Assembly (NCBI GenBank): GCA_964518475.1
Contig: CAZFGR010000006.1
Coordinates: forward strand, 23,355 to 79,229
Source: an uncultured Nitrososphaerota archaeon
GTDB taxonomy: Archaea > Asgardarchaeota > Njordarchaeia > Njordarchaeales > Njordarchaeaceae
Direction of reading: 5' to 3'
DNA length: 55,875 nt
Shown: one piece after another, positions 5,639-43,558 of the stretch
Layout: the number at the start of each line of letters is the position of its first letter
Numbering within the stretch: the stretch's first letter is position 1
Made by a program: the position numbers and the translations under genes
Notes under the pieces: model-generated
Databases searched by the model: none
Seen by the model: only the letters and a program-made list of their open reading frames with translations
Told to the model about the DNA's origin: nothing

Positions 5639-7395
5639 TGGTAGACGCTTATTTACGGAGAGTTTTGTATATTGATCTCACGCATAAGAGATACTGGGTC
5701 GAGGATCGAGAAGACTTATTCGAGAAATGGCTTGGTGGAGTAGGTGTTGCTGTACAATTACTCAAAGAGGAACTTCCTAAAGATGCCGACCCCTTGGGCC
5801 CAGATAACGTAATAGTCTTGGCCGTGGGACCTCTAGTAGGATATTACCCACTCGCTTCAAAAACAGTTGCTGTATTCAAGAGTCCCCTAACTGGGAATTA
5901 TGGGGAAAGCCATGCTGGTGGAAGAAGCGCTGTTGCTCTGCGAATGTGTGGTTTCGGAGCCATTGTTATCAAAGGAGCAAGTGATATTCCTATATACTTA
6001 GCGATACACAATGGAAAAGTCTACTTTAGAGATGCTGGAGCCTACTGGGGAATGCGCTCCACGTATACTGTAGGGAGAATTATAAGAGAGAATGAGCCCG
6101 GAGCGGGGCTGAGAACCATTATAAGGATAGGTTTAGCTGGAGAAAACTTGGTGAGGTATGCTTGTGCGACAACAGAAACCTATAGGCACTTCGGAAGACT
6201 CGGTCTCGGAGCTGTTATGGGTTCAAAGAAATTAAAGGCGATAGTAATTAGTGGAAAACGTCTCCTTCCCGTAAAGGATAAGAAACTATATAGGGAGATC
6301 TATCAGGAGATTTATGATAAAGCAGTCAAATCTCCATTAATGAAAAAATATCATGACTATGGAACGCCTGTCAATGTTAAGGTGCTTAACGAGATAAAAG
6401 CACTACCAACAATGAACCTCAAAAAGAGTTTCTTTGAGTATGCCGATTACTTAAGCGGAGAGTTCTTGGCCGAGAATTACTTGGGTAGGCGGGTTGCGTG
6501 CACACACTGTCCAGTCGCCTGCGTACATATAGCGACTTGGAGAGAACCTTACGAGGATGAACCATTCTTCTATAAAACAAAGTTCGTATCCTATGATTAC
6601 GAACCAATATACGCCCTAGGCACAATGCTCGGAATTAAAGATACTGTTGGATTCCTAAGACTATTGGAAGCCGTAGAGATTTATGGTCTAGATGCTATGA
6701 GTACTGGTGCTTGTTTAGCATGGGCAACAGAGGCTTTGGAGAGAGGTATAATTTCCGAGAAAGATACCATCGTCAAACTCTCATGGGGTGACTGGAAGAG
6801 CTATATAAAGGCCGTGGAGTATATTGTGAACCAACCTAATGAATTCTATAAAGCATTAGCAATGGGTGTCGAGTATGCATCCACAAAATATGGTGGGAAA
6901 GACTTCGCCCTTGCTTTTGGCGGTCTAGAGATGCCTGGATATCATACTGGTCCAGCTGCCCATATAGGATATCTCCTAGGTTCTAGACATAGTCACTTAG
7001 ATATGGCTGGTTATAGCCTTGATCAAAAAACTCTTGGGCAGGAATTGACTCCTGAAGAAACTGTTGATCGGTTAATGAAAGAGGAGACTTGGAGACAGAT
7101 TCTTTCGAGTCTTGTGATCTGTTTCTTCGCGAGGGGTATCTACTCGCCTGAGGTAGTGTCTAAAGCTCTAAAGCCTCTGGGATATGATCTATCGGAGGAA
7201 GACCTAAAGAAACTTGGAGAGGAAATCTATAAAGAAAAGTACAGGTTAAAGATACGAGAAGGCTTTGATCCTAGGAAACTCAGAATACCTCGTAGAATCC
7301 TAGAAACCGAATCCGCGAAGGGTAAATTGAGTGAAGAGTATATCCAAAAAGCCATTAGTTATTTCGTACAAAAAATTGGATTAGCTAAGCAGTAG
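5638..7395 (+). CDS. aor: Tungsten-containing aldehyde:ferredoxin oxidoreductase family catalytic subunit
   Basis: KSPLTG..GES.AGG, IG.AGENLV, GRLGLGAVMGSKKLKAIV, C..CPVAC and GLD.MS motifs. Confidence 0.93.
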   Translation: MVDAYLRRVLYIDLTHKRYWVEDREDLFEKWLGGVGVAVQLLKEELPKDADPLGPDNVIVLAVGPLVGYYPLASKTVAVFKSPLTGNYGESHAGGRSAVALRMCGFGAIVIKGASDIPIYLAIHNGKVYFRDAGAYWGMRSTYTVGRIIRENEPGAGLRTIIRIGLAGENLVRYACATTETYRHFGRLGLGAVMGSKKLKAIVISGKRLLPVKDKKLYREIYQEIYDKAVKSPLMKKYHDYGTPVNVKVLNEIKALPTMNLKKSFFEYADYLSGEFLAENYLGRRVACTHCPVACVHIATWREPYEDEPFFYKTKFVSYDYEPIYALGTMLGIKDTVGFLRLLEAVEIYGLDAMSTGACLAWATEALERGIISEKDTIVKLSWGDWKSYIKAVEYIVNQPNEFYKALAMGVEYASTKYGGKDFALAFGGLEMPGYHTGPAAHIGYLLGSRHSHLDMAGYSLDQKTLGQELTPEETVDRLMKEETWRQILSSLVICFFARGIYSPEVVSKALKPLGYDLSEEDLKKLGEEIYKEKYRLKIREGFDPRKLRIPRRILETESAKGKLSEEYIQKAISYFVQKIGLAKQ

Positions 7396-8622
7396 AACCT
7401 CAAGATAGACCTCTGCTCGCACTTTATAATTTTTTTCCACCACATTTTTTATTTCTTTAGGTAAATTATAGACTCTAGAGTTCGTCTCGTTTATACCTAT
7501 TGAAACCCTTATCTTGGCCGTATTTGATGATGGATCATAATTAACATCGATGCTTATAATTTCTACCCAAGGGTATTTCTCCGAAATATAATTAGTGACT
7601 GTTTTTCTTATCGAGTCTTCAAGACTTAGCTCCTTGTAATAGTTAACGGTAGATGCTGTTATAGGTATTAAAACAAGGATTAGTGCTATAATGATGGCTA
7701 ATAATTGCTTCCTAACTAATTTCCTAGCCAGAATTTCTTTTCTAGCGGATAATCCCGGTTTTAGTCCTGATAACCAGAAGTAGAGAATACTCATGGCATT
7801 TATTGCAATAATGTTGATGATTAGAAGGAGAGAAGATCCGAGAATTATCTGGCGTGCGTATGGATTCTTCTTGATAAGGAAAGCGAGACCAATGCCGATA
7901 TTAGCTGCTGGGGGGACTACCGAGGCTGCGATTGCTACTCCTACTAGCATTACTGCTGTTGCACTGGCTACGCTTAATGCTGCTGCTAGACCCGCTATTG
8001 TTGCGAACATTACATCTACTAGAGTAGGTCTCGCTCTAAGCATTATTTGTGAGGTAACTGTGCTATGCGGCATAAGTAGGGTGAAGAAAAAACCTGCTAG
8101 GATTGAGAGTGAGAGACCAACAATTTCTGACACTATACTTATCTTTCGTAAATCTGGAATATCCAGAACGACCCCTAACGATAGACCTAGAATGGGGCCT
8201 ATAACTGGAGCGATAATCATAGATGCTATAATCATTATTACGTTATCTGTTAACAATCCCAAAGTCGCGAGGAGAGAAGCTAATATTGTTCCTAGCACAA
8301 AATTGTTATTTAGTTCTGCAAGCCTTCTAACATCTATAAGAATTTCCTCGCGCGGAATTCTTGTGGGTCTTTTTATCTCAGCAACTGGAATCTCGGGTAA
8401 AGCATATTCAATTGTATAGACTACAAAGCTTCCGTAGAGTGATCCAACACCAACTTTCTTGATTGCATCAATAACAATCTCAGCAAGTTCTTCTGGTATT
8501 GTTAAGAAAATCAAAGTGTTTTTTTGGTCACTTATCATGTCAAATTTGACTTGAAGCATTTCGAGAGTTTTTAAAACAATATCTTTCTTGTCATTTGGAA
8601 CAATAATATTTATTCCTCTCAT
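7381..8622 (-). CDS. TIGR00341/DUF389 family membrane protein
   Basis: LATLGLL.DN...IIASMIIAP..GPI and LVGVAIAASVVPPA motifs, with soluble N- and C-terminal domains. Confidence 0.88.
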   Translation of the reverse strand: MRGINIIVPNDKKDIVLKTLEMLQVKFDMISDQKNTLIFLTIPEELAEIVIDAIKKVGVGSLYGSFVVYTIEYALPEIPVAEIKRPTRIPREEILIDVRRLAELNNNFVLGTILASLLATLGLLTDNVIMIIASMIIAPVIGPILGLSLGVVLDIPDLRKISIVSEIVGLSLSILAGFFFTLLMPHSTVTSQIMLRARPTLVDVMFATIAGLAAALSVASATAVMLVGVAIAASVVPPAANIGIGLAFLIKKNPYARQIILGSSLLLIINIIAINAMSILYFWLSGLKPGLSARKEILARKLVRKQLLAIIIALILVLIPITASTVNYYKELSLEDSIRKTVTNYISEKYPWVEIISIDVNYDPSSNTAKIRVSIGINETNSRVYNLPKEIKNVVEKNYKVRAEVYLEVLLLS

Positions 8623-9524
8623 TCTTCTCCCTTCGTCCCGATTATAACATTTAGAATCTCCTTTAATGTCTTCTTTCTATTCTCTAGAGATTCAATACCG
8701 TAGGATATTGGGAAAAGAGTTAACTTTAGCTCTGGTGCTTTTTCTATCACGCCTACTTCTTTGGAGTCAAAAGTAATTATATCTACTTGTTCCTGGAGAC
8801 TTTCTATAGCTCCAAGAATATCTTGGGAAAATTTGCCTCGAGCTAAGAGAGCTTTGTCTAGCTTTGTAAGCCTATGAGGAAGAATACAGATAATCTCTCC
8901 TTTATGTTTCTCTAGGACCTTCTTTACACTACTAATTTCTCGAATAAATAACATTGTTAGCAATGATGTTTCATAGAGGACGATCCGCGAACTATCCTCG
9001 ATAGCCTCCTTTGCTGCTTCCGTGACTTCTGAGTCCTCACTAAAGAACTTTATTCTCCTTATCTCTTCCCCATCAAATGCCATGTAACTGAGAGGATCTA
9101 TCATTCTATGCTTCGTTTCAATCATTGTGGTTGATGGTGGATCTAGCAAAGGTAGAATCCTGTACTTTATCTTAAGAGCTTCACGAATCTTATCGTACAA
9201 TTGTGTCAATGACCACTCCTTCTCAATCCATATCGTGAGAAGAAACATTAGAACACTATCAAAATCCGTTAGTCTGCGGCCAATAATGTTTAGCGCGTTG
9301 AGAATGTTCGAGACCCTATAAGTTGTTCTAAAATGTCGCCTACCCAACGCTGAGAATACTGATGATAGTCCTGGCGAGAAATGGAATCCTGGATCTAGCT
9401 TAAAATCAAAGGATGGTACGTGGATGATCACAACGTCATTTGATGATAATTGTTTAACTACTTCTGGGAAATGCCATGAAGTATTAATGCCGTCAACTAG
9501 AAAGGTTATCATAGAAATTCTCAT
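8619..9524 (-). CDS. Divergent CofD/UPF0052-fold protein (probably non-catalytic)
   Basis: Colinear resemblance to CofD blocks (FSPGLSSV.SALG, ILP..D....T.IET, A.EAIEDS..I.L), with the conserved catalytic motifs degenerate. Confidence 0.5.
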   Translation of the reverse strand: MRISMITFLVDGINTSWHFPEVVKQLSSNDVVIIHVPSFDFKLDPGFHFSPGLSSVFSALGRRHFRTTYRVSNILNALNIIGRRLTDFDSVLMFLLTIWIEKEWSLTQLYDKIREALKIKYRILPLLDPPSTTMIETKHRMIDPLSYMAFDGEEIRRIKFFSEDSEVTEAAKEAIEDSSRIVLYETSLLTMLFIREISSVKKVLEKHKGEIICILPHRLTKLDKALLARGKFSQDILGAIESLQEQVDIITFDSKEVGVIEKAPELKLTLFPISYGIESLENRKKTLKEILNVIIGTKGEE

Positions 9525-22141: not shown

Positions 22142-22558
22142 TCACCTCAGTTTCAAAGGACCCATTCTCTTTATTTCTTCAACAAACTCCTTGACGACTT
22201 CTGCAAATTTTCTACCCTCGGTAGCTGATATCCATTCAATTCGGACTCTCTTAGGATTGATACCCAGCTGCTCCAACAGTTTCTTAAGTAAGGCAATTCT
22301 TTTCAAAGCCTTGAAGTTTCCAGAGAAATAGTGACAATCATTTGGAGTGTGACAGCCAGCAATGAGTACTCCATCAGCCCCTTTTCTAAAAGCCTCTAGG
22401 ACGAACTGGACATCTAATCTTCCCGTACAGGGAATCTGAATCGTTACTATATTTGGAGGATACTCCAATCTACTAACACCAGCTAGATCAGCACCAGCGT
22501 ATCCACACCATTTACAGAGAAAACCAATTATTTTAGGTTCAAAATCATCGTTTTCCAA
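22142..22558 (-). CDS. mvhD: Hydrogenase [2Fe-2S] subunit D
   Basis: C.WC.Y.GADLAG, PCTGR, GC...DCHY..GN and WISA.EG. Confidence 0.94.
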   Translation of the reverse strand: MENDDFEPKIIGFLCKWCGYAGADLAGVSRLEYPPNIVTIQIPCTGRLDVQFVLEAFRKGADGVLIAGCHTPNDCHYFSGNFKALKRIALLKKLLEQLGINPKRVRIEWISATEGRKFAEVVKEFVEEIKRMGPLKLR

Positions 22559-34166: not shown

Positions 34167-35315
34167 CTATTTGCTGATTTTTAATTTTTGATACTCATAG
34201 AACCATACAGCAATTATTCGATAGCCAAAGTGTGCAAATTTTGTAAATGGAGCCGTTACAATTAGATCGAAGACAAATATTAGATGTGTCGCGAACATCA
34301 CGTATGCTAGAAGAAACATGTTTGTGTACATGAATATGTCTATTAGGAAACCAGTCAATATTGCGAGGAATACAAGTATCAGGAAAGACCAATCGCTCTC
34401 ATGACTATATTGGGAGTAAACATCATTTTTGATTAATCTTTTATAGATAAAGTATATGGATCCATAAGCACCGATTAAGCCTCCAATGATACCGAATGCT
34501 CTAGCTAGAACTCCAAAAAATTCGATATCTATGGCTCTAAGAATTTCAAAGCTTTCTCTCAATCCAAGTAAATTGCTGTTTTTCAGATAATCTAGTGATG
34601 TAGCGAGGAACATTAGAACAAAGCCCCAGAATATTGCCAGATGTGCTATGTACCTATTCTGTCTCTCACACTTCGAGTAACGTCGTTCAGCAAGCACTTC
34701 TCCAAAAAGTATAATGAAAAAGCTCTTAACTAAATTTTTGACTTTTGTCCCAGTTGACAAGTTTCCTTCTAGAGCGCCATGTTTTATGTAATTGTACATT
34801 TTTATCCCTTGTAGTAAAGCGATAACAGCAATATAAACAGCTAAAACTAGGCCCGCTGTGTGGATAAACTCGTAGCTCAGTAATGAGAACGGATTAAACT
34901 TTGTGAGATCTAGCGGTTTCTTAAACAAGTATATTCCTAAAGCGGCGATAATAGATAGGATAATTAGGGACACTACTGACATTAACTTGGAATAGAATAT
35001 TCTCGCGATGCCGCCCAGAGAGTATTTTATGATAGCGTATCTCCTAGCAGCCATCATTAACGCTCCAGGATCAGCGTCGCGAGGGCAAGATTCGCTACAC
35101 TCTCCACAATAATAGCATAACCATAGTTGTGGACTCGATAATAACTTGTCTTCTAACCCGAGTATCGAGTACCTTATCATCATTCGTGGCAATTCAAAGT
35201 TATTCTCTGATAGTGGGCAAATAGCAGTACATTCCCCGCAACTATAACAAGCTGTGATATCAAACGCTCCAAGTTTCTTAATTTCTTTTATAAGATTCGG
35301 ATTTGTTCTCACCAT
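34167..35315 (-). CDS. QmoC-like protein: N-terminal 2x[4Fe-4S] HdrC-like domain plus heme b membrane anchor
   Basis: CYSCGECTAICP, WLCYYCGECSESCPR, about 6 TM helices with H..IFWGF, H...V and PFTKFAH..YR histidines. Confidence 0.85.
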   Translation of the reverse strand: MVRTNPNLIKEIKKLGAFDITACYSCGECTAICPLSENNFELPRMMIRYSILGLEDKLLSSPQLWLCYYCGECSESCPRDADPGALMMAARRYAIIKYSLGGIARIFYSKLMSVVSLIILSIIAALGIYLFKKPLDLTKFNPFSLLSYEFIHTAGLVLAVYIAVIALLQGIKMYNYIKHGALEGNLSTGTKVKNLVKSFFIILFGEVLAERRYSKCERQNRYIAHLAIFWGFVLMFLATSLDYLKNSNLLGLRESFEILRAIDIEFFGVLARAFGIIGGLIGAYGSIYFIYKRLIKNDVYSQYSHESDWSFLILVFLAILTGFLIDIFMYTNMFLLAYVMFATHLIFVFDLIVTAPFTKFAHFGYRIIAVWFYEYQKLKISK

Positions 35316-35322
35316 AGCTTAA

Positions 35323-35628
35323 TCACCTGCTTCCAACCCATTTATATTTCCAATATCCTTCATCCGTTTTCTCAACTGGTTCAATCTGCTTGTATCTTAG
35401 ATACGTCATTAGGTACCAAAATACCGTGTAGGTATCTATTCCAGTCTCTTTAGCTATTTCTGGTACTGTTTTAGGTCCGGTTTTCAATGCTTCTAGAATC
35501 TTTTTCTTTATCTCGTTCTGCTCTTTAAGCCGCTCCTGTAGTTCTTTGGGCGGAGCCTTAAAACCTATTTTTTCCCGAAGATAAAGGAAAGTATTTCTTT
35601 TTTCACGACTCCTCTCCTTTCCACTCAT
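35323..35628 (-). CDS. Small winged-HTH protein inside the Hdr/Qmo-like operon
   Basis: ILEALK.GPKTVPEIAKETG......W.L. Confidence 0.8.
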   Translation of the reverse strand: MSGKERSREKRNTFLYLREKIGFKAPPKELQERLKEQNEIKKKILEALKTGPKTVPEIAKETGIDTYTVFWYLMTYLRYKQIEPVEKTDEGYWKYKWVGSR

Positions 35629-35629
35629 T

Positions 35630-37588
35630 TCAAATCTCCTCCGCCATAGCTTTAATCATAGCTCTGATCTGCTCAGTAGATAGTGTCTTTAATTGAATAG
35701 CTTCTGTTGGGCATACAGCGACACATGATCCACAACCAATGCATAAAGCTTCATTTACCCAAGCTTTAATCCCTATTCCTTCATACTCTTTTTCTTGAAT
35801 CGCATTAACTGGACACTCCTTCATACATAGCTTAGATAGATTACATCTGCTTGGATCCACAAAAGCAACCAATGGCTCAAGCTCTATTGTCTCCCTCAAT
35901 ACAATGGATGCGGCCTTAGCAGCAGCCGCTGATGCAGATGCCAGCGTCTCCTGGATATTTCTTGGTGCTTGACAAGTACCAGCTATCAGAACCCCTGCAA
36001 TATTTGTTTCTACTGGTCGTAACTTGGGATGAACCTCCTGATAGAATCCATCTCTACCAATAGGTAGCTTCAGAATTTCTTCTAGCTTCTTATTTTCTCT
36101 CGCTACCATTCCAGTAACTAACACAACAAGATCGACAGGGATCTCTATCTCTTCTCTGTTCGTTAATAAATCTTTAACAGTGATGATGAGTTTATCTCCC
36201 TCTGAATGGACTCGTGGTGGATCATTTGGGTCATATCTAATAAAGACCGCTCCTTTCCTTCCCGCCTCTTCGTAATATGTTTCGTATTTACCATATGTTC
36301 GAATGTCTCTGTAGATGTTATAGATTGTCAAATCTTTGAATTTCTTAAACAACTCTGCGTTGAGATGCGTTGTAACTGAGCAACAGTACCTAGAGCAGTA
36401 CTCATTAACCTTCTCTGGACCAGTTGGTAGTTGCCTGCTCCCAACACAGTAGATAAAAGCTATCGATTTTACTTCTTTTCCATTAAACATTATTTTTTCA
36501 TCACTACTAATATCTAAGATTCTTTCAAACTGCGGCAATGTTATAACGTTTTGGAATTTCTTGTAACCAAATTCTCCTTCTTTGGGTTCGTACGTGTCAA
36601 AGCCAGTCGCAACGATTACTGCACCAACGTTAAGCGTGATTGTTTGTGGTTGTTGATTAAAGTCCACTGCATCGCCTAAAATCTTTACGCATTCACCACA
36701 TTTATTACAATGTTCCATATCTATTACGGGTAGATCTGGGTAGGCCCCCTCGTAAGGAATATAAATCGCTTTTCTCTTCGTAAGCCCGTAATCAAACTCG
36801 TTAGGAACCTCTATTGGGCACTTCTCAATAGCCTCTGCTATTTTAGGATGCTTCTTTACGATATATCTTGGATTAACTTTAATTTTAACAGTGAAATTAC
36901 CCAAAAAACCACTAAAGCTCTCAACCTCAGCATTCGTATAGACAACGATGTTATCCCTTTTCTTAAGCTCCTCTATTAATCTTCGCACAATATCTTTCCC
37001 GCTCTCTCCGCTCGGAAAAGCTTTCCATATCTGAGCTACTCTTCCACCCAAGAATGGTGACTTTTCAACCAAGAATACATTTACACCCATCCTTGATAGA
37101 TCAAGGGCCGCCCTAATTCCTGCAATACCCCCACCTATGATTAATACACTCGGCGTTGTCTTAACTTTAATCTTCTCTAATGGTTTTGCACGCCGCACAT
37201 ATTCGATACCCGCTTTTACATGCCTAATAGCTTTCTTAGTCGCTTCCTCTGGGTTATCCGAATGCGCCCACGATACATCCTCTCTAATGTTAACGTGATA
37301 GAAAAGATATGGGTTCAAACCAGCCCTGGCTACACAGTTTCTAAATGTCATTTCATGCAACTTCGGAGAACACGAAGCAACAACGACGCCGTCGAGATTA
37401 TACTTCTTTATGTCCTCCTCGATCATTTTTTGTCCAGCATCCGAGCACATGAACATGAAATGTTTTGCCACGACTACTCCTGGGTAATTCTTGATTACCT
37501 CAACTACCTTCTCAACATCAACAACATCCGATATATTCCCGCCGCAATGGCATACATACACTCCGATCCGCTTAGCCATATACATCAC
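35630..37588 (-). CDS. HdrA-like flavoprotein (QmoB-like, lacks the FPTxDCxxC cysteines)
   Basis: N-terminal CHCG domain, GGGIAG, AFPSGES in place of TFPTxDC, CVGSR, CSRYCC and C-terminal ferredoxin. Confidence 0.9.
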   Translation of the reverse strand: MMYMAKRIGVYVCHCGGNISDVVDVEKVVEVIKNYPGVVVAKHFMFMCSDAGQKMIEEDIKKYNLDGVVVASCSPKLHEMTFRNCVARAGLNPYLFYHVNIREDVSWAHSDNPEEATKKAIRHVKAGIEYVRRAKPLEKIKVKTTPSVLIIGGGIAGIRAALDLSRMGVNVFLVEKSPFLGGRVAQIWKAFPSGESGKDIVRRLIEELKKRDNIVVYTNAEVESFSGFLGNFTVKIKVNPRYIVKKHPKIAEAIEKCPIEVPNEFDYGLTKRKAIYIPYEGAYPDLPVIDMEHCNKCGECVKILGDAVDFNQQPQTITLNVGAVIVATGFDTYEPKEGEFGYKKFQNVITLPQFERILDISSDEKIMFNGKEVKSIAFIYCVGSRQLPTGPEKVNEYCSRYCCSVTTHLNAELFKKFKDLTIYNIYRDIRTYGKYETYYEEAGRKGAVFIRYDPNDPPRVHSEGDKLIITVKDLLTNREEIEIPVDLVVLVTGMVARENKKLEEILKLPIGRDGFYQEVHPKLRPVETNIAGVLIAGTCQAPRNIQETLASASAAAAKAASIVLRETIELEPLVAFVDPSRCNLSKLCMKECPVNAIQEKEYEGIGIKAWVNEALCIGCGSCVAVCPTEAIQLKTLSTEQIRAMIKAMAEEI

Positions 37589-38913
37589 CTCTTTGCACGA
37601 CGTTTATGCTCATTCAGATAAGCCATACATTGTGCTGCAGCTGCATCAGCTTCAACTATAGAATCAGGGATATCTTTAGGCCCCAAGACACATCCAGCTG
37701 CGAATACTCCTGGCACCGATGTAGCTGTGGGATTATTATTTGGATCCACTTGCTTTATCCATCCTACCTCATCAAGTTCTATATTCACGTTCTTAAATAC
37801 TTTTACAATATCAGAATTCGGTAACGCTCCTACAGCTAAGACAACAAGATCAAATGTATCCTCCTTTAGTTTACCTCCATCATCCATATCCTCATATTTC
37901 ACTACTACGTTACCTTTTTCATCCTCATCAACAACTACAACCCGACCCTTAATAAACATCGTACCCATCGCTTGAGTTTGATTAAAGAATTCCTCAAAGC
38001 CCTTACCAAAAGCTCTAATATCGATATAGAATATCGATACATCCGCTAATGGTAGAGCACCCATAATCAATTGTGCTTGCTTTATAGAGTACATACAGCA
38101 TATCTGTGAGCAATAGGGATTACCCACCTTGTGATCACGAGAACCAACGCAGAGAATATAAGCAATTCTCATAGGTTCTTTGCCGTCCGAAGGTCTTAAG
38201 ACACTATTATATGGTCTTGTTGGAGCAAGTAAGCGGTCCATTTGCATGGCGGTTATAACATTCTTGCATCTACCGTAACCGAATTCTGGTCTAAGCGTGG
38301 GCGAAAATAGTTTAAAGCCTGTAGCAATTATTATTGCTCCTACTTTTACCTCTAATATTTCTGGTTCTTGGGTAAAATCAATAGCACCAGCTGGGCACGC
38401 TCTTTCACAACTTCCACACAATATACAATTATCGAGATCTATAATCGCTTTCTTTGGTACAGCAATATCGAATGGTATATAAGCTGCTTTACGTCCTCTC
38501 ATATCGAATTGAAATTCATCTGAAACTATCACTGGACATACATTCTCACAAACACCGCAACCAGTACAAGCATCCAAATCAACATACCTAGGTTTCTTTA
38601 ATATCTTGACTGAGAAATCTGCTTCTCCGTTCTTAACAACTTCCTGTACCTCCGAATATGTTAATAAAGTAATGTTCGGATGATGCGCCGCAGCTGCCAT
38701 TTTTGGTGTAGAAATACAGCTTGCACAATCTAATGTTGGGAAAGTCTTACTTAATAGCGCCATCTTTCCTCCAATACTCCCCTCTTTCTCCACCAATAGA
38801 ACCTTATAACCAGCATCTCCCAGTGTTAGAGAGGCTTCAATGCCGGCTATGCCCCCACCTATTACTAATACATCATACTCATTCGCTCGCTTCATTTTTG
38901 CATACCTCATCAT
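37585..38913 (-). CDS. Short HdrA-like flavoprotein (QmoA-like core with inserted ferredoxin)
   Basis: Begins at GGGIAG; has TFPTLDCASC, a 2x[4Fe-4S] insert and CSQICCMY; no N-terminal domain or C-terminal ferredoxin. Confidence 0.9.
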   Translation of the reverse strand: MMRYAKMKRANEYDVLVIGGGIAGIEASLTLGDAGYKVLLVEKEGSIGGKMALLSKTFPTLDCASCISTPKMAAAAHHPNITLLTYSEVQEVVKNGEADFSVKILKKPRYVDLDACTGCGVCENVCPVIVSDEFQFDMRGRKAAYIPFDIAVPKKAIIDLDNCILCGSCERACPAGAIDFTQEPEILEVKVGAIIIATGFKLFSPTLRPEFGYGRCKNVITAMQMDRLLAPTRPYNSVLRPSDGKEPMRIAYILCVGSRDHKVGNPYCSQICCMYSIKQAQLIMGALPLADVSIFYIDIRAFGKGFEEFFNQTQAMGTMFIKGRVVVVDEDEKGNVVVKYEDMDDGGKLKEDTFDLVVLAVGALPNSDIVKVFKNVNIELDEVGWIKQVDPNNNPTATSVPGVFAAGCVLGPKDIPDSIVEADAAAAQCMAYLNEHKRRAKR

Positions 38914-39326
38914 TCTGTCTTCTTCTTAACCGGACCTAGTTTCTTCACTTTTTCATAGAGATCATGAATATGCTTCAAGAACGGCTCAACACATACGGAA
39001 CATATCGCGGACATTTTTAGTCTTTCTGGCTCAATACCGTGCTTCTTAAGCAGTTCTACTGCTTCTGCAATCCTTTTAGCGGTTCTATCGGAACAATCCT
39101 TTAGGAATGGACAATCGGTACCATCAGCCGCTACAAATACTCCGTCAAAGCCGCATTGGAATGCATAAAGTATTATGTCTGGTCTTATCATGCTAGAACA
39201 TGGTACTCTTATAATCGATGTAGTAGCAGGGTAATGCCTATGAAGTAGCCCCGTCAAATCAATTGCTAGATCCGATATAAAATCGGTTGAAAAGATAAGA
39301 ATCTTTGGTTTAAACTCTTCTGACAT
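38910..39326 (-). CDS. Divergent MvhD/FlpD-like Fe-S protein
   Basis: F.PKI..F, Y......IR.PCS, AF..G.DGV and GI.PERL align with MvhD at 22142; Cys pattern altered. Confidence 0.85.
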   Translation of the reverse strand: MSEEFKPKILIFSTDFISDLAIDLTGLLHRHYPATTSIIRVPCSSMIRPDIILYAFQCGFDGVFVAADGTDCPFLKDCSDRTAKRIAEAVELLKKHGIEPERLKMSAICSVCVEPFLKHIHDLYEKVKKLGPVKKKTE

Positions 39327-39389: not shown

Positions 39390-39647
39390 TCACTTCTTCC
39401 TTCTAACAAATATTCTCCAATAACCCGGCTCCTCAATGACTCCTAAAAATTCGTGCCCTACTTTCTTGGCCCACAGTGGTAGATCCCTAGCAGTACCTGG
39501 ATCGGAAGAAAGAACCTCTAAAATTCCTCCAATAGGTACCTCTGTAATGGCTCTTTTAGCTGCTAGAAGAGGGCCTGGACAAGATACGCCTCTTGCATCA
39601 ACAGTTTTGTCGGGTTTTATTTTCCTTAGATCAATTTCCTCAGGCAT
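39390..39647 (-). CDS. tusA: TusA/SirA family sulfur carrier
   Basis: DARG.SCPGP, EVLS.DP....D.P.W. Confidence 0.92.
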   Translation of the reverse strand: MPEEIDLRKIKPDKTVDARGVSCPGPLLAAKRAITEVPIGGILEVLSSDPGTARDLPLWAKKVGHEFLGVIEEPGYWRIFVRRKK

Positions 39648-39657
39648 CTTTATCCCC

Positions 39658-40068
39658 CTATATGAAAAGCGCTACATCAGCCTGCCTTGCGGCATCAACC
39701 ATCTCAGTAGCTCCACACATATCATCTACAAGTATCAAGTCATCTAATGTTGCATTCCAAGCCTTAGCAGCAGCTCCACACGCATGAATCCTTACAGTAC
39801 CCATCTCTTTGAGCTCTTTTAACATCTCGTACCATGGTTTCAGACCAGCTCTCTTTAAACCTTCTTCAACTTGGGAAGCAAGCTCTTTGTGCTCTATTAA
39901 CTCTTTATTTTTCTCTACGACATCCTTTCTGAAAGCGTAGACTCCCCAAAGCATTAAGTATATGTCTACTTCCATATCTAGAGCTACAGCACCACTTACA
40001 AGAACAGCCATTCCAAGCAATCTGTCAGGCGTTCCATTATTGACAATTATGACCATTCTTCCAGGCAT
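39658..40068 (-). CDS. DsrE/DrsE-family sulfurtransferase-like protein
   Basis: A.ALD.EV.IY...WGV, IHAC and ..GA..M....A...LFI; start placed at ATG 40068 after GGTG. Confidence 0.85.
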   Translation of the reverse strand: MPGRMVIIVNNGTPDRLLGMAVLVSGAVALDMEVDIYLMLWGVYAFRKDVVEKNKELIEHKELASQVEEGLKRAGLKPWYEMLKELKEMGTVRIHACGAAAKAWNATLDDLILVDDMCGATEMVDAARQADVALFI

Positions 40069-40601
40069 ACATAACACCTAGGAAACTATTATATCTTAAC
40101 ACAAGTAGAGATCCTTTTTTAGCATTTAATATAAGGTCTATAGGGAAAATGATTGTAAAAATAATAAGTTTATTACGTCTATTGATTCTATATATTCCAA
40201 TCAGTTATAAGTATAGAAGTAGTATAGTATATATTATACCTTCATATATAGTATATAAAGAAGCGTTGTTCTATAACTTTGTCTACGAGATACTAACTGT
40301 ATTTCATCATTCCCCCTCGAAACTAGGATTTATATTCACGGTTCTAAGGTAAGAATTCGCTTCACGATAACAGATAACTTGGCTGATATTATCGATATTA
40401 TAGTGGCCATCTTGTTGATCTTCTTCCGTACTAAATAGTACTTGGAGAAGATATTTGAAACTATTTCTGTGTTATATTAACGAAAACAAGTTAAATTAAC
40501 TCCTTCTACGGTCTAACAATTTATTTTAAATATTAGCCATGCCTAATTAATACTTATTTTTGTAGAAATATATAGGTTCCTCCAAAACTCAGGGACCTTG
40601 A

Positions 40602-41996
40602 ATGCGTATTCTTTTAATAAACCCACCAACAATCCACGCTTTGAAGAAAATAGCTGGTGTTACTGGTCCCCCTCTGGGCCTAGCCTATTTAGCAGCAGTA
40701 GCTAGGGAAAATGGTTTTACTGTTAAAATAATTGATGCTGTAGCTGAGAATCTATCGCTGAAGGAGCTTTCACGGGAGATAAAATTTTTTGACCCCGATG
40801 TTGTTGGGGTAACGGCTACTACTCCTATGATACCTGATGCCTACGCGGTTGCGCATATAACCAAGATGATCAATCCGAACGCCCTAGTAATTATCGGAGG
40901 GCCGCATGTAACTTTCTTGCCAGAAAGAACGCTTCGAGAATGCCCTTACATCGATATAGTTGTGCGGGGAGAGGGAGAAAAAACATTCGAAGAATTACTA
41001 AACACTATAGATTCTGAAAAGAGACTACAAGATGTCAGAGGAATCACTTATCTTGATAAAGAGGGGAGAATAAGATCCACCCCTCCCCGCCCACTAATAA
41101 GGAATATTGATGATATTCCCATCCCAGCCTACGATCTATTACCTCTAGACAAGTATCAAATTGACGGCATCAACTTCGCCACAATCATAACTTCCCGGGG
41201 CTGTCCCTATAATTGCATTTTCTGCTCTTCATCAGCATTATTTGGTCACGTATATAGAGCACACAGCGTGGATAGAGTCTTAGAAGAGGTAAGTCTCCTT
41301 AGATACAAATTCAATATCCGAGAAATCGAATTCTTGGACGACACCTTCACATTAAATAAGAAACGAGCGAAGGAGATCTCTAAAGAGATAGTTAGAAATG
41401 ATATGGATGTTTCCTGGAGCGCCTCGTCTCGTGTAAATACTATCGATTACGAGACCGCTTTATACATGAGACGTGCTGGGGCTCATACAGTGTATCTTGG
41501 GATTGAATCAGGCACTCAAAAAATCCTGAATTTCATTCGGAAAAAAATAACTCTAAATCAAGCTAGAGACGCTGTTAAAGTTTCTAAGAAAGCAGGTTTA
41601 GGCGTTCTCGGATCATTTGTAATCGGCTTTCCCATAGAGACGCTCCAGGACATAAATACTACAATAAGTTTTTCGAAAAGTCTTGATCTCGAAGCTGCCC
41701 AGTATACTGTAGCTACGCCCTATCCCGGCACAGATCTCTGGACTTATTCTATCCGACACAAGTTATTATTAACAGAGGATTGGCGGAAATACACCGCCTT
41801 AGACGTTGTAATGAAGAGCTTTTTCTTATCACCGAAGCAGATAAAGCGCTTATTATTCAAAGCTTACGTGTCTTTTTATCTCAGGCTAAAGTATATTGTC
41901 GAGGATATCGTTAAGCGCGGCGGCTTAATCACTCTGAAGGCGATAGTAGGTACCATAAAATCAATTATTGAAAAGTTGTGGTTAACAAAAAGCTAG
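40602..41996 (+). CDS. B12-binding radical SAM enzyme
   Basis: PPLGLAYLAA, GGPH.T, VVRGEGE, SRGCPYNCIFC and GIESG. Confidence 0.92.
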   Translation: MRILLINPPTIHALKKIAGVTGPPLGLAYLAAVARENGFTVKIIDAVAENLSLKELSREIKFFDPDVVGVTATTPMIPDAYAVAHITKMINPNALVIIGGPHVTFLPERTLRECPYIDIVVRGEGEKTFEELLNTIDSEKRLQDVRGITYLDKEGRIRSTPPRPLIRNIDDIPIPAYDLLPLDKYQIDGINFATIITSRGCPYNCIFCSSSALFGHVYRAHSVDRVLEEVSLLRYKFNIREIEFLDDTFTLNKKRAKEISKEIVRNDMDVSWSASSRVNTIDYETALYMRRAGAHTVYLGIESGTQKILNFIRKKITLNQARDAVKVSKKAGLGVLGSFVIGFPIETLQDINTTISFSKSLDLEAAQYTVATPYPGTDLWTYSIRHKLLLTEDWRKYTALDVVMKSFFLSPKQIKRLLFKAYVSFYLRLKYIVEDIVKRGGLITLKAIVGTIKSIIEKLWLTKS

Positions 41997-42049: not shown

Positions 42050-43558
42050 TTAAGATACTGCAGCCCAGTAGATTGAGGGATTTAGAAGGCTCTCTGTTGC
42101 GTTTTGGATATAGCTTAGCACGATGCCTGGATAGATGCTTACAATTATTATTGCAACGAATATTAGTGTCAACGCAGCTATCATTTCATTCAATTCTTTG
42201 TAATTACTCTCTTTTGTTACTTTCTTTTCTTTTGGTTGCTTCATTATTATGTATTTTATGAGTCTTCCATAGTACCCTATTGAAATTATACTATTCACGA
42301 GTACTAATGCGGCGATTATCAGACCTCGATATCCATCAATGCTTAATGCCGCCCATACGATGAGAAGCTTTGAGAAGAACGTCGAGAAGGGTGGGAGACC
42401 CATTAAACCTATTGCTCCTCCTCCGAAAATAGTTCCAGCTATGGGCATTGATCTACCTATACCGCTTAGATCGTCGAGTTTTCGGCTTCCCGCTTCGTGA
42501 ACAAAAATACCTGCCCCCATGAACATCATTGCTTTAAATAATGCATGATTTATCATGTGGAAAATTGCTGCAGCTATGCCCAACGCTGTTCCTGTTGCTA
42601 CACCGACGAGTATTACTCCTATATTATAGATGCTTGAGTACGCTAGTATCCTCTTTACATCGTCTTGAGCGAGAGCTATTATATTGGGTATAGTAATTGT
42701 CAAGGCACCAATTATCAAGAGGAGATCATATAGTTCAAATCTTATACCAGAGGAGAGTACTAGAAGCCTTATTATAGCGTAAACACCCGATTTAATAACC
42801 ACACCAGATAGCATAGCACTTATGCCACTAGGCGCTGCTGGGTGGGCATCAATTAGCCACGAGTGCATGGGGAATATAGCGGCTTTAAACGAGAATCCAC
42901 AGACTAGCAGAGTAATCACGAAAAACTTTGTCAAGTTGGAGCCCATTTCATATAATTGCTTTGTTGCTAATGCAATGTTTAGAGTTCCAGCTACACCATA
43001 TAGAAGAGCAAAACCTAGGAGAACCAGTGTACTCCCAGTAGCGTCCATTATCAAGTATTTAAAAGCTGCTTCAACCGCTTCCTCATTCTTAAAATAAGCT
43101 ACTAATGAGATAGCGCTGACGCTCAAAGATTCGTAAAAGACAAAGAATGTTAAGAAGTCTCCAGCATAAACTATACCTATGAGACTGAGTAGCATGACTA
43201 GTAAGAGAATATAATAGGCATTGAGTGCATGTCTTCCCTCCATGTATTTTAGGGAATATATAGCGACTACGAATGTTACAAATGCAAAAAGTACGGCCAT
43301 GATAGCGCTGAAGCTGTCGATTATTAGACAAGATGTACTCGGGGACTGTGCTGTAAACCATACAGTGATTGGGTAATGCAGCGTCATTTGGAGAACTTGT
43401 ACAGTTTCTATTAGTGTTAATAGTGATACTACAGCTCCAATGCTTCCAAGTAAATAATTATTTTTCCTTACTGACTCTTTCAGTCCCACTAACACTATTA
43501 ATACTATACCTAAAATGATAGTTAGGAAAATGTTTAATGGAGGCGATAAAAGGTTCAT
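42050..43558 (-). CDS. Antiporter-like subunit (MrpD/NuoM-N type) of the group 4 hydrogenase
   Basis: FVF.E, EAAFKY, KAA.FP.H.WL.DAHP.AP, KR.LAYSS and NHALFK. Confidence 0.9.
   Translation of the reverse strand: MNLLSPPLNIFLTIILGIVLIVLVGLKESVRKNNYLLGSIGAVVSLLTLIETVQVLQMTLHYPITVWFTAQSPSTSCLIIDSFSAIMAVLFAFVTFVVAIYSLKYMEGRHALNAYYILLLVMLLSLIGIVYAGDFLTFFVFYESLSVSAISLVAYFKNEEAVEAAFKYLIMDATGSTLVLLGFALLYGVAGTLNIALATKQLYEMGSNLTKFFVITLLVCGFSFKAAIFPMHSWLIDAHPAAPSGISAMLSGVVIKSGVYAIIRLLVLSSGIRFELYDLLLIIGALTITIPNIIALAQDDVKRILAYSSIYNIGVILVGVATGTALGIAAAIFHMINHALFKAMMFMGAGIFVHEAGSRKLDDLSGIGRSMPIAGTIFGGGAIGLMGLPPFSTFFSKLLIVWAALSIDGYRGLIIAALVLVNSIISIGYYGRLIKYIIMKQPKEKKVTKESNYKELNEMIAALTLIFVAIIIVSIYPGIVLSYIQNATESLLNPSIYWAAVS

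Follow-up and report, generated by a model that had tools for sequence, protein, structure and literature searches.

The gene considered here, mvhD', is part of an operon in the window, by which we mean the whole stretch of 55,875 nucleotides that was analysed (Table 1). The first-pass annotation gave no strand for it; it is read from the minus strand. The gene order (dsrE)-tusA-mvhD'-short hdrA-long hdrA-wHTH-qmoC was fixed in the locus sets of both clades of the protein, clade 1, to which the present gene belongs, and a sister clade. In 74 of 78 loci tusA lay directly upstream of mvhD', and the CPGP motif of TusA was conserved in the loci of both clades. HdrA2 was the best-matching model for both HdrA proteins of the operon, of which the long one has arm domains and the short one does not. 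FPTLDCxxC is kept by the short HdrA in both clades, and the DCxxC pair was absent from the long HdrA in all 70 operon copies checked. Within this motif 72 of 74 sister-clade copies of the short HdrA read DCCSC, versus DCASC in clade 1. The QmoC-like subunit scored 210 bits with the NCBIfam qmoC model, under the type I cut-off of 300.

Table 1. Positions in the window of the mvhD' operon, of the cysteine motifs of its product and of the canonical mvhD used for comparison
Feature	Position	Strand	Description
mvhD'	38910..39326	-	138-aa FlpD/MvhD-fold protein, ATG start; cysteine set C43, C72, C78, C109, C112
P42-C43-S44	39195..39203	-	canonical 'PC' ligand position, kept, after beta2
D68-G-T-D71-C72-P-F-L-K-D-C78	39093..39125	-	loop following beta3; D68 stands where canonical MvhD has a Cys ligand, C72 at a kept ligand position, C78 new
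C109-S-V-C112	38991..39002	-	end of strand beta4/N-terminus of helix alpha4 (DSSP); invariant in both clades
dsrE-like sulfur carrier	39658..40077	-	139 aa; Pfam DsrE and DrsE_2; in many, not all, loci
tusA	39390..39647	-	85 aa, CPGP active-site Cys23; directly upstream of mvhD'; Pfam TusA 81 bits
short HdrA (QmoA-like)	37585..38913	-	442 aa; without N- and C-terminal arm domains; keeps FPTLDCASC
long HdrA (QmoB-like, without fused MvhD domain)	35630..37588	-	652 aa; N-terminal and C-terminal ferredoxin arm domains; DCxxC pair lost
winged-HTH-like small protein	35323..35628	-	101 aa; conserved operon member; weak Pfam HTH matches
QmoC-like subunit	34167..35315	-	HdrC-type Fe-S domain and NarI/HdrE-type membrane domain; Pfam Fer4, Nitrate_red_gam
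canonical mvhD (comparator)	22142..22558	-	hdrA-mvhDGA operon beside [NiFe] hydrogenase small and large subunits; Pfam FlpD 180 bits

The operon contains no hydrogenase, Fdh or HdrB gene and thus does not have the neighbourhood of a canonical MvhD. As far as the operon goes, the annotation is therefore right that no hydrogenase is adjacent; about 2.7 kb away, past a divergent radical-SAM gene, a group-4 hydrogenase-like cluster begins. No CCG/HdrB protein is encoded in or beside the operon within the window, and neither dsrA nor aprA nor dsrC was found in the organism's own genome (91% complete). The module tusA-mvhD'-hdrA-hdrA-wHTH-qmoC was present in at least 588 species-level genomes ranging from Asgard and TACK archaea to Actinomycetota, Bacillota, Chloroflexota, Bacteroidota and Aminicenantes, many of them without Dsr or Apr. 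A word-indexed search for longer proteins revealed no fused forms of MvhD'. The TusA-FlpD protein P0131 and the FlpD-HdrL proteins P0140 and P0149 were rejected as natural fusions; the domain is truncated at each joint, so that they look like frameshift or gene-calling artefacts.

MvhD' is a member of the FlpD superfamily, matching Pfam PF02662 with 97 bits (cut-off 22.3; E 1e-27) over profile positions 1-123 of 123. It shares 30% identity with the canonical MvhD of the window (BLASTP E 5e-23). The AF2 model (pLDDT 93.5) has the MvhD fold: Foldseek aligned it to MvhD 5odc_D with E 5.7e-14, a TM-score of 0.88 and an rmsd of 1.3 Å, and to the group of MvhD, VhuD and ElpC (5odc_D, 7bkb_F, 8rvu_F) with TM-scores of 0.85-0.88 and rmsd values of 1.2-1.5 Å. 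In this model the cofactor site is predicted at the top of a four-stranded parallel sheet, and all five cysteines are placed in loops or N-caps after beta2, beta3 and beta4. DSSP assigned a strand to residues 103-107 and a helix to residues 113-130, with C109 and C112 between them. A CxxC pair at a strand end and helix N-terminus is what thioredoxin-like proteins have; the fold itself is MvhD/flavodoxin-like and not that of thioredoxin. The CSVC motif was not found in any solved structure of the family (canonical MvhD, ElpC and VhuD only), and our literature search found no paper describing the subunit. A kinship with the MvhD-like N-terminal domain of HdrA, with which MvhD' shares an 'NISD'-type loop, was considered and rejected, the hhalign probabilities of 0.6% and 0.1% not being significant.

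In canonical MvhD, the second cysteine of the CxxC motif (Cys16) is an 'additional', non-ligand residue, and from the same source we take the cluster ligands to be the first cysteine of that motif, after beta1, and those of PC, GC and DC (PMC13580544). In the HMM alignment, the canonical C15, C18, C44, C69 and C75 correspond to T14, I17, C43, D68 and C72 of MvhD'. Of the four [2Fe-2S] ligand positions of canonical MvhD, two thus still hold a cysteine (C43 and C72) and two do not (T14 and D68), so that the canonical four-cysteine ligand set is not present; the accessory position is occupied by I17, and C78, C109 and C112 are new. The four exchanges described in the first-pass annotation are all real when MvhD' is aligned with canonical MvhD. 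The change reported there as CKWC to STDFIS is seen as FLCKWCGY against FSTDFISD, and that of GC...DCHY as AGCHTPNDCHYF against AADGT--DCPFLKDC. The cysteine of PC is retained (IPC to VPC, the residue being C43), and CSVC stands in place of WISA (EWISATEG to SAICSVCVE).

Conservation was followed in 80 species genomes with 52-94% identity, out of at least 588 species with the gene. C43, C72, C78, C109 and C112 were invariant in all 80, so that the refuting case named in the annotation, new cysteines that are not conserved, does not apply. The wider pattern of T14, I17, D19, C43, D68, D/E71, C72, C78, C109 and C112 was essentially invariant, the exceptions being T14S in two copies, D19Y in one and a further copy truncated at a contig end; the remaining cysteine, C58, is not conserved. 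This pattern is far beyond chance. As a variant of MvhD, MvhD' is genuine and strongly conserved, and its cysteines form a different set. Sets of five cysteines, four ligands and one spare, recur in the family, canonical MvhD included. Among subfamilies C68 and C78 are mutually exclusive, as a ligand swap would predict.

The sister clade occurs in the same tusA-...-qmoC operon. C72 and C78 are missing from its proteins, and C43 from 25% of the copies, whereas C109 and C112 were both kept in 80 of 80 loci. With these losses the sister-clade protein is unable to hold a four-cysteine cluster alone. In the tree, a branch with SH-aLRT 95 separated all proteins with C109 and C112 from canonical MvhD and from the MvhD domain of type I QmoB. 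Since C109-x-x-C112 is all that remains of the cysteine set in the sister clade, apart from C43 in most copies, the pair appears to be the hallmark of the FlpD clade associated with type II Qmo, independent of a cluster.

In summary of its relation to known proteins, MvhD' resembles MvhD, VhuD and ElpC in fold, length, Pfam family, the PC and DC positions, D71 and HdrA-type flavoprotein neighbours. It differs from them in the loss of two ligands (T14, D68) and of the accessory cysteine (I17), in the new C78, C109 and C112, in the lack of a hydrogenase, Fdh or HdrBC partner, in its position downstream of tusA and in forming a separate clade. The sHdr system has TusA and DsrE-family carriers (DsrE3) encoded beside an HdrA-containing complex, as is the case here. 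Its catalytic site is provided by HdrB1, B2, C1 and C2 with the noncubane clusters of CCG domains, and it also has LbpA. To our knowledge, sHdr includes neither MvhD nor QmoC. Type I QmoB, a subunit of QmoABC in sulfate reducers and Chlorobi, carries an MvhD-like domain at its C-terminus (Pires 2003; Ramos 2012, PMC3333476). This domain probably occupies the same position in the complex as MvhD', on the long HdrA-like subunit; in type I it is fused to QmoB, whereas MvhD' is encoded by a separate gene before the short HdrA and has rewired cysteines. The one type I QmoB examined (Desulfotruncus, L085) has C14, C43, C68 and C72 and lacks C109/C112.

Type II Qmo has been described for 'Ca. Vulcanisaeta moutnovskia' and Ammonifex degensii, with a QmoA and a QmoB that resemble HdrA more than they do the type I proteins (PMC10504309). 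The operon of MvhD' is very probably this published, uncharacterised module, a match made by description. It has HdrA-like QmoA and QmoB and a QmoC-type subunit, and it also occurs in Vulcanisaeta, in a MAG (L024) whose QmoC-like gene in this operon is the best qmoC match of that genome. The searchable text and supplements on type II Qmo mention neither an MvhD-like subunit nor its cysteines nor a linkage to tusA/dsrE (Neukirchen 2023, PMC10504309). The module is known in print only as 'type II Qmo', with no assigned role.

We tentatively attribute to MvhD' the role of connector of a TusA/DsrE-linked type II Qmo, with a re-ligated cluster and, separate from it, a functional CxxC pair; of the readings considered we prefer this one, although we would give it slightly less than an even chance. 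MvhD' would be the small connector subunit of a complex of short HdrA, long HdrA and QmoC, equivalent to the MvhD domain that type I QmoB carries as a fusion, but encoded on its own. The homologous structures of Mvh-Hdr, Elp-Hdr and Fdh-Hdr would place it on the N-/C-terminal arm domains of the long HdrA, from where it would look onto the flavin of the short HdrA, the HdrA expected to face it and the only one with DCxxC. MvhD' probably still holds an Fe-S cluster at a rebuilt site: the ligand positions that end beta1 and beta3 have no cysteine (T14, D68), the loop ligands C43 and C72 are kept, and C78, located at the alpha3 N-cap, may substitute for C68. In clade 1, the cluster would be bound by C43, C72, C78 and one of C109, C112 and D68, and such a subunit would still pass electrons. 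The C109-x-x-C112 pair at the strand end and helix N-cap would have a role independent of the cluster, most likely as a dithiol/disulfide or as a bidentate contact between the DCxxC motif of the short HdrA and the persulfide of TusA. A thiol or persulfide role of the pair is plausible. As mvhD' sits between tusA and the Qmo-like genes, the complex may meet carrier-bound sulfur there; for a putative contact between TusA and MvhD', gene adjacency is the one link.

The annotation had offered a choice between a re-ligated cluster and a redox-active CxxC. Both alternatives survive, sharpened by the conserved cysteines, the ligand-swap pattern and the CxxC of the sister clade. Selenocysteine at C109 or C112 would have marked a redox-active residue, and its absence counts against the preferred connector with a functional pair. 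None of the five cysteines was replaced by selenocysteine in 160 operon loci, one apparent gap being a contig end, nor in three further members from 401 Bacillota genomes. An in-frame TGA was found in canonical MvhDs as well, in one case at the accessory cysteine and in another at the position of the GC ligand, and selenocysteine is for this reason no clean discriminator.

Somewhat unlikely in our view, MvhD' could be an electron wire and nothing else, in which four of the five cysteines, C109 and/or C112 among them, restore a site of the standard [2Fe-2S] or [4Fe-4S] kind, without any thiol chemistry; the sister clade would then share ligands with a partner or serve as a structural adaptor. 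Five cysteines would correspond to four ligands and one spare, like in canonical MvhD, the cofactor face of the modelled fold carries every one of them, and the mutual exclusion of C68 and C78 fits as well. In the flavodoxin-like Fe-S domains of the [NiFe]-hydrogenase small subunit and NuoB, cysteines follow several strands, which also favours simple re-ligation. This is opposed by the sister clade, where C109 and C112 are invariant in 80 of 80 copies without C72 and C78 and often without C43. Mere ligands should drift freely after the loss of the cluster.

A stronger claim for the pair, which we regard as unlikely, is that C109-x-x-C112 is a catalytic thiol/persulfide site that accepts sulfane sulfur from TusA-SSH and is regenerated via the DCxxC motif and FAD of the short HdrA, the MvhD fold doing the job of HdrB. 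In every other Hdr-type enzyme known to us, that job falls to the CCG-domain noncubane clusters of HdrB. The annotation had suggested such a replacement of HdrB as the site reacting with the TusA persulfide, and it would fit the adjacency of tusA and the lack of an HdrB gene next to this operon within the window. A complex without HdrB raises the question of where sulfur is handled, and MvhD' is the one subunit with systematically rebuilt redox-active residues, encoded beside TusA. If the site were catalytic, it would represent a new and very widespread route, in archaea and more than ten bacterial phyla, by which protein-bound sulfur is coupled to quinone, NAD(P)H or ferredoxin pools. The subunit also bears on an unsolved step in the Hdr complexes of methanogens, the passage of electrons from MvhD to the flavin of HdrA.

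It is quite improbable that clade 1 is free of a cluster altogether and that MvhD' is a thioredoxin-like dithiol carrier, with sulfur passing from TusA-SSH to C109/C112, perhaps via C72/C78 and C43, the short HdrA recycling the pair through FAD/DCxxC and HdrB being fully replaced. As the complex can work with a sister-clade subunit unable to bind a four-cysteine cluster alone, clade 1 might lack the cluster too, which counts against the cluster of the preferred reading; the sister clade retains just the CxxC. The position of this pair at a strand end and helix N-cap, the adjacency of tusA, the retention of DCxxC solely in the facing, short HdrA and the lack of a CCG/HdrB protein in the operon within the window point in the same direction. 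However, MvhD' still has two of the canonical ligand positions as well as D71, and C43, C72, C78 and the D68-G-T-D loop, invariant over huge phylogenetic distances, look like a metal site. In addition, we know of no biochemical precedent for a disulfide carrier with the MvhD fold.

Maps of Mvh-Hdr contain the density of an unknown ligand that is held by HdrA C202/C205 and contacted by MvhD D71 (PMC13580544), a residue that is kept in MvhD', where the position is D or E across the 80 genomes. It is very improbable that this place is an inter-subunit site, at which a cluster or metal ion, the 'unknown ligand' on C202/C205, would be shared between the C109/C112 pair of MvhD' and the DCxxC motif of the short HdrA and would feed electrons to the flavin. 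Such a site would agree with this density, with the kept D71 and with the sister clade, where MvhD has lost cysteines and the motif of the short HdrA has one more (DCCSC). Against it, the co-variation is a single evolutionary event, residues 109-112 have to be presumed at the HdrA interface, and the corresponding WISA(S/T)EG loop of canonical MvhD is free of cysteine.

Finally, the beta1 loop of MvhD', its cysteines gone, is still highly conserved (S-T-N-x-I-S-D). Conservation in spite of this loss suggests a new function of the loop, one outside the preferred reading of MvhD' as a connector with a re-ligated cluster and a separate CxxC pair.

The rewired MvhD paralogue MvhD' belongs over its full length to the Pfam FlpD family (97 bits, covering all 123 profile positions) and shares 30% identity with the window's canonical MvhD. 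A word-indexed search recovered 386 relatives, which are 54-99% identical and come from Njord-, Odin-, Hod- and Promethearchaeota, Thermoproteota, Bacillota, Fermentibacteria and other groups. When one genome was scanned for each species, at least 588 genomes encoded the protein. A subset of its close homologues (P0015, P0018, P0024, P0026-P0028, P0031 and P0038; 212-217 aa, 66-73% identity) carry, before the FlpD domain, an N-terminal extension of ~75 aa that matches no Pfam family.

Coordinates of mvhD', its canonical comparator and neighboring genes in the window
Feature	Positions	Strand	Remarks
mvhD' ORF	38910-39326	minus	ATG start, 138 aa
canonical mvhD (comparator)	22142-22558	minus	operon hdrA-mvhD-mvhG-mvhA-protease
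short hdrA	37585-38913	minus	QmoA-like
long hdrA	35630-37588	minus	QmoB-like
B12-binding radical SAM gene	40602-41996	plus	divergent, upstream of dsrE
Complex-I-like hydrogenase cluster	starting at 42050		

The AlphaFold2 model of MvhD' (81-sequence alignment; pLDDT 93.5, pTM 0.88) has the topology b1(9-14)-a1(18-27)-b2(36-41)-a2(49-57)-b3(62-67)-a3(78-95)-b4(103-107)-a4(113-130). Its top Foldseek matches were the MvhD chains 5odc_D, 8rvu_F and 7bkb_F (TM 0.85-0.88, rmsd 1.2-1.5 Å), followed at TM near 0.5 by lumazine synthases, whose flavodoxin-like sheet has the strand order 2-1-3-4. All five cysteines are placed in loops or helix N-caps after strands b2, b3 and b4, on the face that carries the cluster in canonical MvhD.

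The substitutions relative to MvhD listed in the first-pass annotation were all recovered in the HMM alignment and the translations; the strand, which that annotation left unstated, is the minus strand. Canonical C15, C18, C44, C69 and C75 correspond to T14, I17, C43, D68 and C72 of MvhD', and C78, C109 and C112 are without canonical counterpart. The new cysteines, whose conservation that annotation had left to be checked in homologues, proved to be invariant together with C43 and C72 in 20 diverse members, among which C58 is not conserved. Across 80 species genomes, T14, I17, D19, C43, D68, D/E71, C72, C78, C109 and C112 are essentially fixed. In M. marburgensis MvhD, Cys16, the second cysteine of the CxxC, is described as an 'additional' conserved cysteine, and an unassigned density is bound by an HdrA cysteine pair and MvhD Asp71 (PMC13580544). 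The canonical ligands are thus the first Cys of CxxC and those of the PC, GC and DC motifs. MvhD' retains two of these four positions (C43 and C72) plus Asp71, and the ligand cysteines terminating strands b1 and b3, as well as the accessory Cys, are gone.

Six more distant proteins (P0137, P0141, P0142, P0153, P0155 and P0173; 35-41% identity) all carry A-[IV]-C-[ST]-[VI]-C and differ in their remaining cysteines. At least 470 metagenome stretches carry the P0141 type, and in 28/28 contigs long enough to judge tusA lies directly upstream of the mvhD-like gene and short hdrA follows, with the rest of the operon behind it as far as the contig extends. In this sister clade (clade 2, the MvhD' type being clade 1), 80/80 copies read T14, G17, Y19, C/S43 (60 Cys, 20 Ser), S68, D71 and S72, with a gap at 78 and with C109 and C112. 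A quick ML tree placed all C109/C112 proteins on one side of a branch with an SH-aLRT of 95, and on the other both the type I QmoB domain and canonical MvhD. Nested among the C109/C112 proteins are clade 1 (98) and a group of clade 2 and its allies (98); the alignment had only 133 columns and many forks were unresolved. C68 and C78 never occur together: P0142, P0155 and P0169 have C68 and C72, clade 1 has C72 and C78, as a ligand swap would predict. Two metagenome contigs (L155:442-8381 and L156:6-8336) each carry a tandem of paralogous tusA-mvhD-hdrA-hdrA-wHTH-qmoC operons, one belonging to clade 1, in which short HdrA is HdrL-like, and the other to clade 2.

The order (dsrE)-tusA-mvhD'-short hdrA-long hdrA-wHTH-qmoC is kept in 80 genome loci as far as contigs extend. 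tusA is immediately upstream of mvhD' in 74 of the 78 loci having upstream sequence (median gap 34 nt) and elsewhere within the locus in two further ones; none was found within the fetched flank of L004 and L047. In two archaeal loci dsrE-tusA lies downstream of qmoC instead of upstream of mvhD' (L005:11005-11702, L016:14749-15462). The operon of the window matches exactly the description of 'type II' QmoABC, which was placed closer to HdrA, reported for V. moutnovskia and A. degensii as well as for genomes both having and lacking Dsr/Apr, and given no assigned function; neither an MvhD-like subunit nor TusA is named in the text or supplements of that work (Neukirchen et al. 2023, PMC10504309). 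Both HdrAs of the window fit the HdrA2 model best, and the NCBIfam qmoC model matches the QmoC-like protein with 210 bits, below its cut-off of 300. The mvhD' operon is also present in a Vulcanisaeta MAG (L024), where its QmoC-like gene is the best qmoC-model match of the genome. No dsrA, aprA or dsrC was found in the window's own genome (91% complete), and APS reductase is therefore not the partner here.

The radical SAM gene, which stands between the operon and the hydrogenase cluster, is not a conserved neighbor of the operon, giving only two weak matches in the 80 loci. In the closest relative, a Njordarchaeota MAG (L001, MvhD' 94% identical), a second short and long HdrA pair of 50-55% identity directly follows qmoC (5978-8793), whereas the window has a CCA-adding enzyme gene there on the opposite strand.

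Unlike MvhD', the MvhD domain fused in the type I QmoB of Desulfotruncus alcoholivorax (L085, an 806-aa open frame) has Cys at 14, 43, 68 and 72 and lacks C109/C112, so that the rewiring is peculiar to the type II module linked to TusA. Two canonical MvhD genes, one from the same organism (L084) and L176, contain an in-frame TGA, at the accessory Cys (FCCHY-U-AY) and at the 'GC' ligand position (VAG-U-HPGDCHY), respectively, which probably encodes selenocysteine.

Taken together, the data show that the C109/C112 FlpD proteins are a distinct, ancient and horizontally spread clade, whose hallmark is the b4-a4 CxxC and which is tied to TusA and type II Qmo. We think that clade 1 MvhD' would still bind a cluster, because it retains two of the ligand positions, because the replacement of C68 by C78 fits re-ligation and because the D68-G-T-D71 loop is invariant. 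As the CxxC is intact in a clade unable to bind a four-Cys cluster alone, C109 and C112 must act as a pair. The pair may serve as a dithiol/disulfide relay, make a bidentate contact to a site that it shares with short HdrA, or accept the TusA persulfide; the last, the bolder proposal of the first-pass annotation, is consistent with all observations and proven by none.

The two HdrAs complement each other. Long HdrA has an N-terminal MvhD-like and a C-terminal ferredoxin domain and reads FPSGESGKD where HdrA usually has FPTLDCxxC; the DCxxC pair was found in 0/70 operon copies. Short HdrA has neither arm domain and retains the pair in clade 1, as DCASC (FPTLDCASC), and in clade 2, as DCCSC. In methanogen complexes, MvhD sits on the N-/C-terminal 'mobile arm' of one HdrA, and the electrons that it delivers pass the Cys pair of the other HdrA on their way to the FAD' there (PMC13580544). 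By homology, MvhD' would sit on long HdrA, facing the flavin and DCxxC of short HdrA. The three-Cys form FPTLDCCSC was seen in 72/74 clade 2 short HdrAs (loci L090-L169), and the lineage with this extra Cys is also the one in which C72 and C78 were lost from the MvhD-like subunit.

In many bacteria short HdrA has an insert of ~450 aa after residue ~176 (e.g. L015:9413-12124, Aminicenantes, the gap pattern of which recurs in many bacterial loci). This insert, a GltD/NfnB-type module (Fer4_20 and Pyr_redox_2), makes the protein HdrL-like and suggests NAD(P)H as redox partner of these versions; the archaeal short HdrA of the window is without it. QmoC was matched only over its first ~80-95 residues, the HdrC-like Fe-S part, in many bacterial operons (e.g. 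L068:14080-14307; also G001:C7:127527-127778), and the Desulfotruncus QmoC open frame is no longer than 109 aa. These operons may lack the membrane domain or have a strongly diverged one, and its absence would make those complexes soluble.
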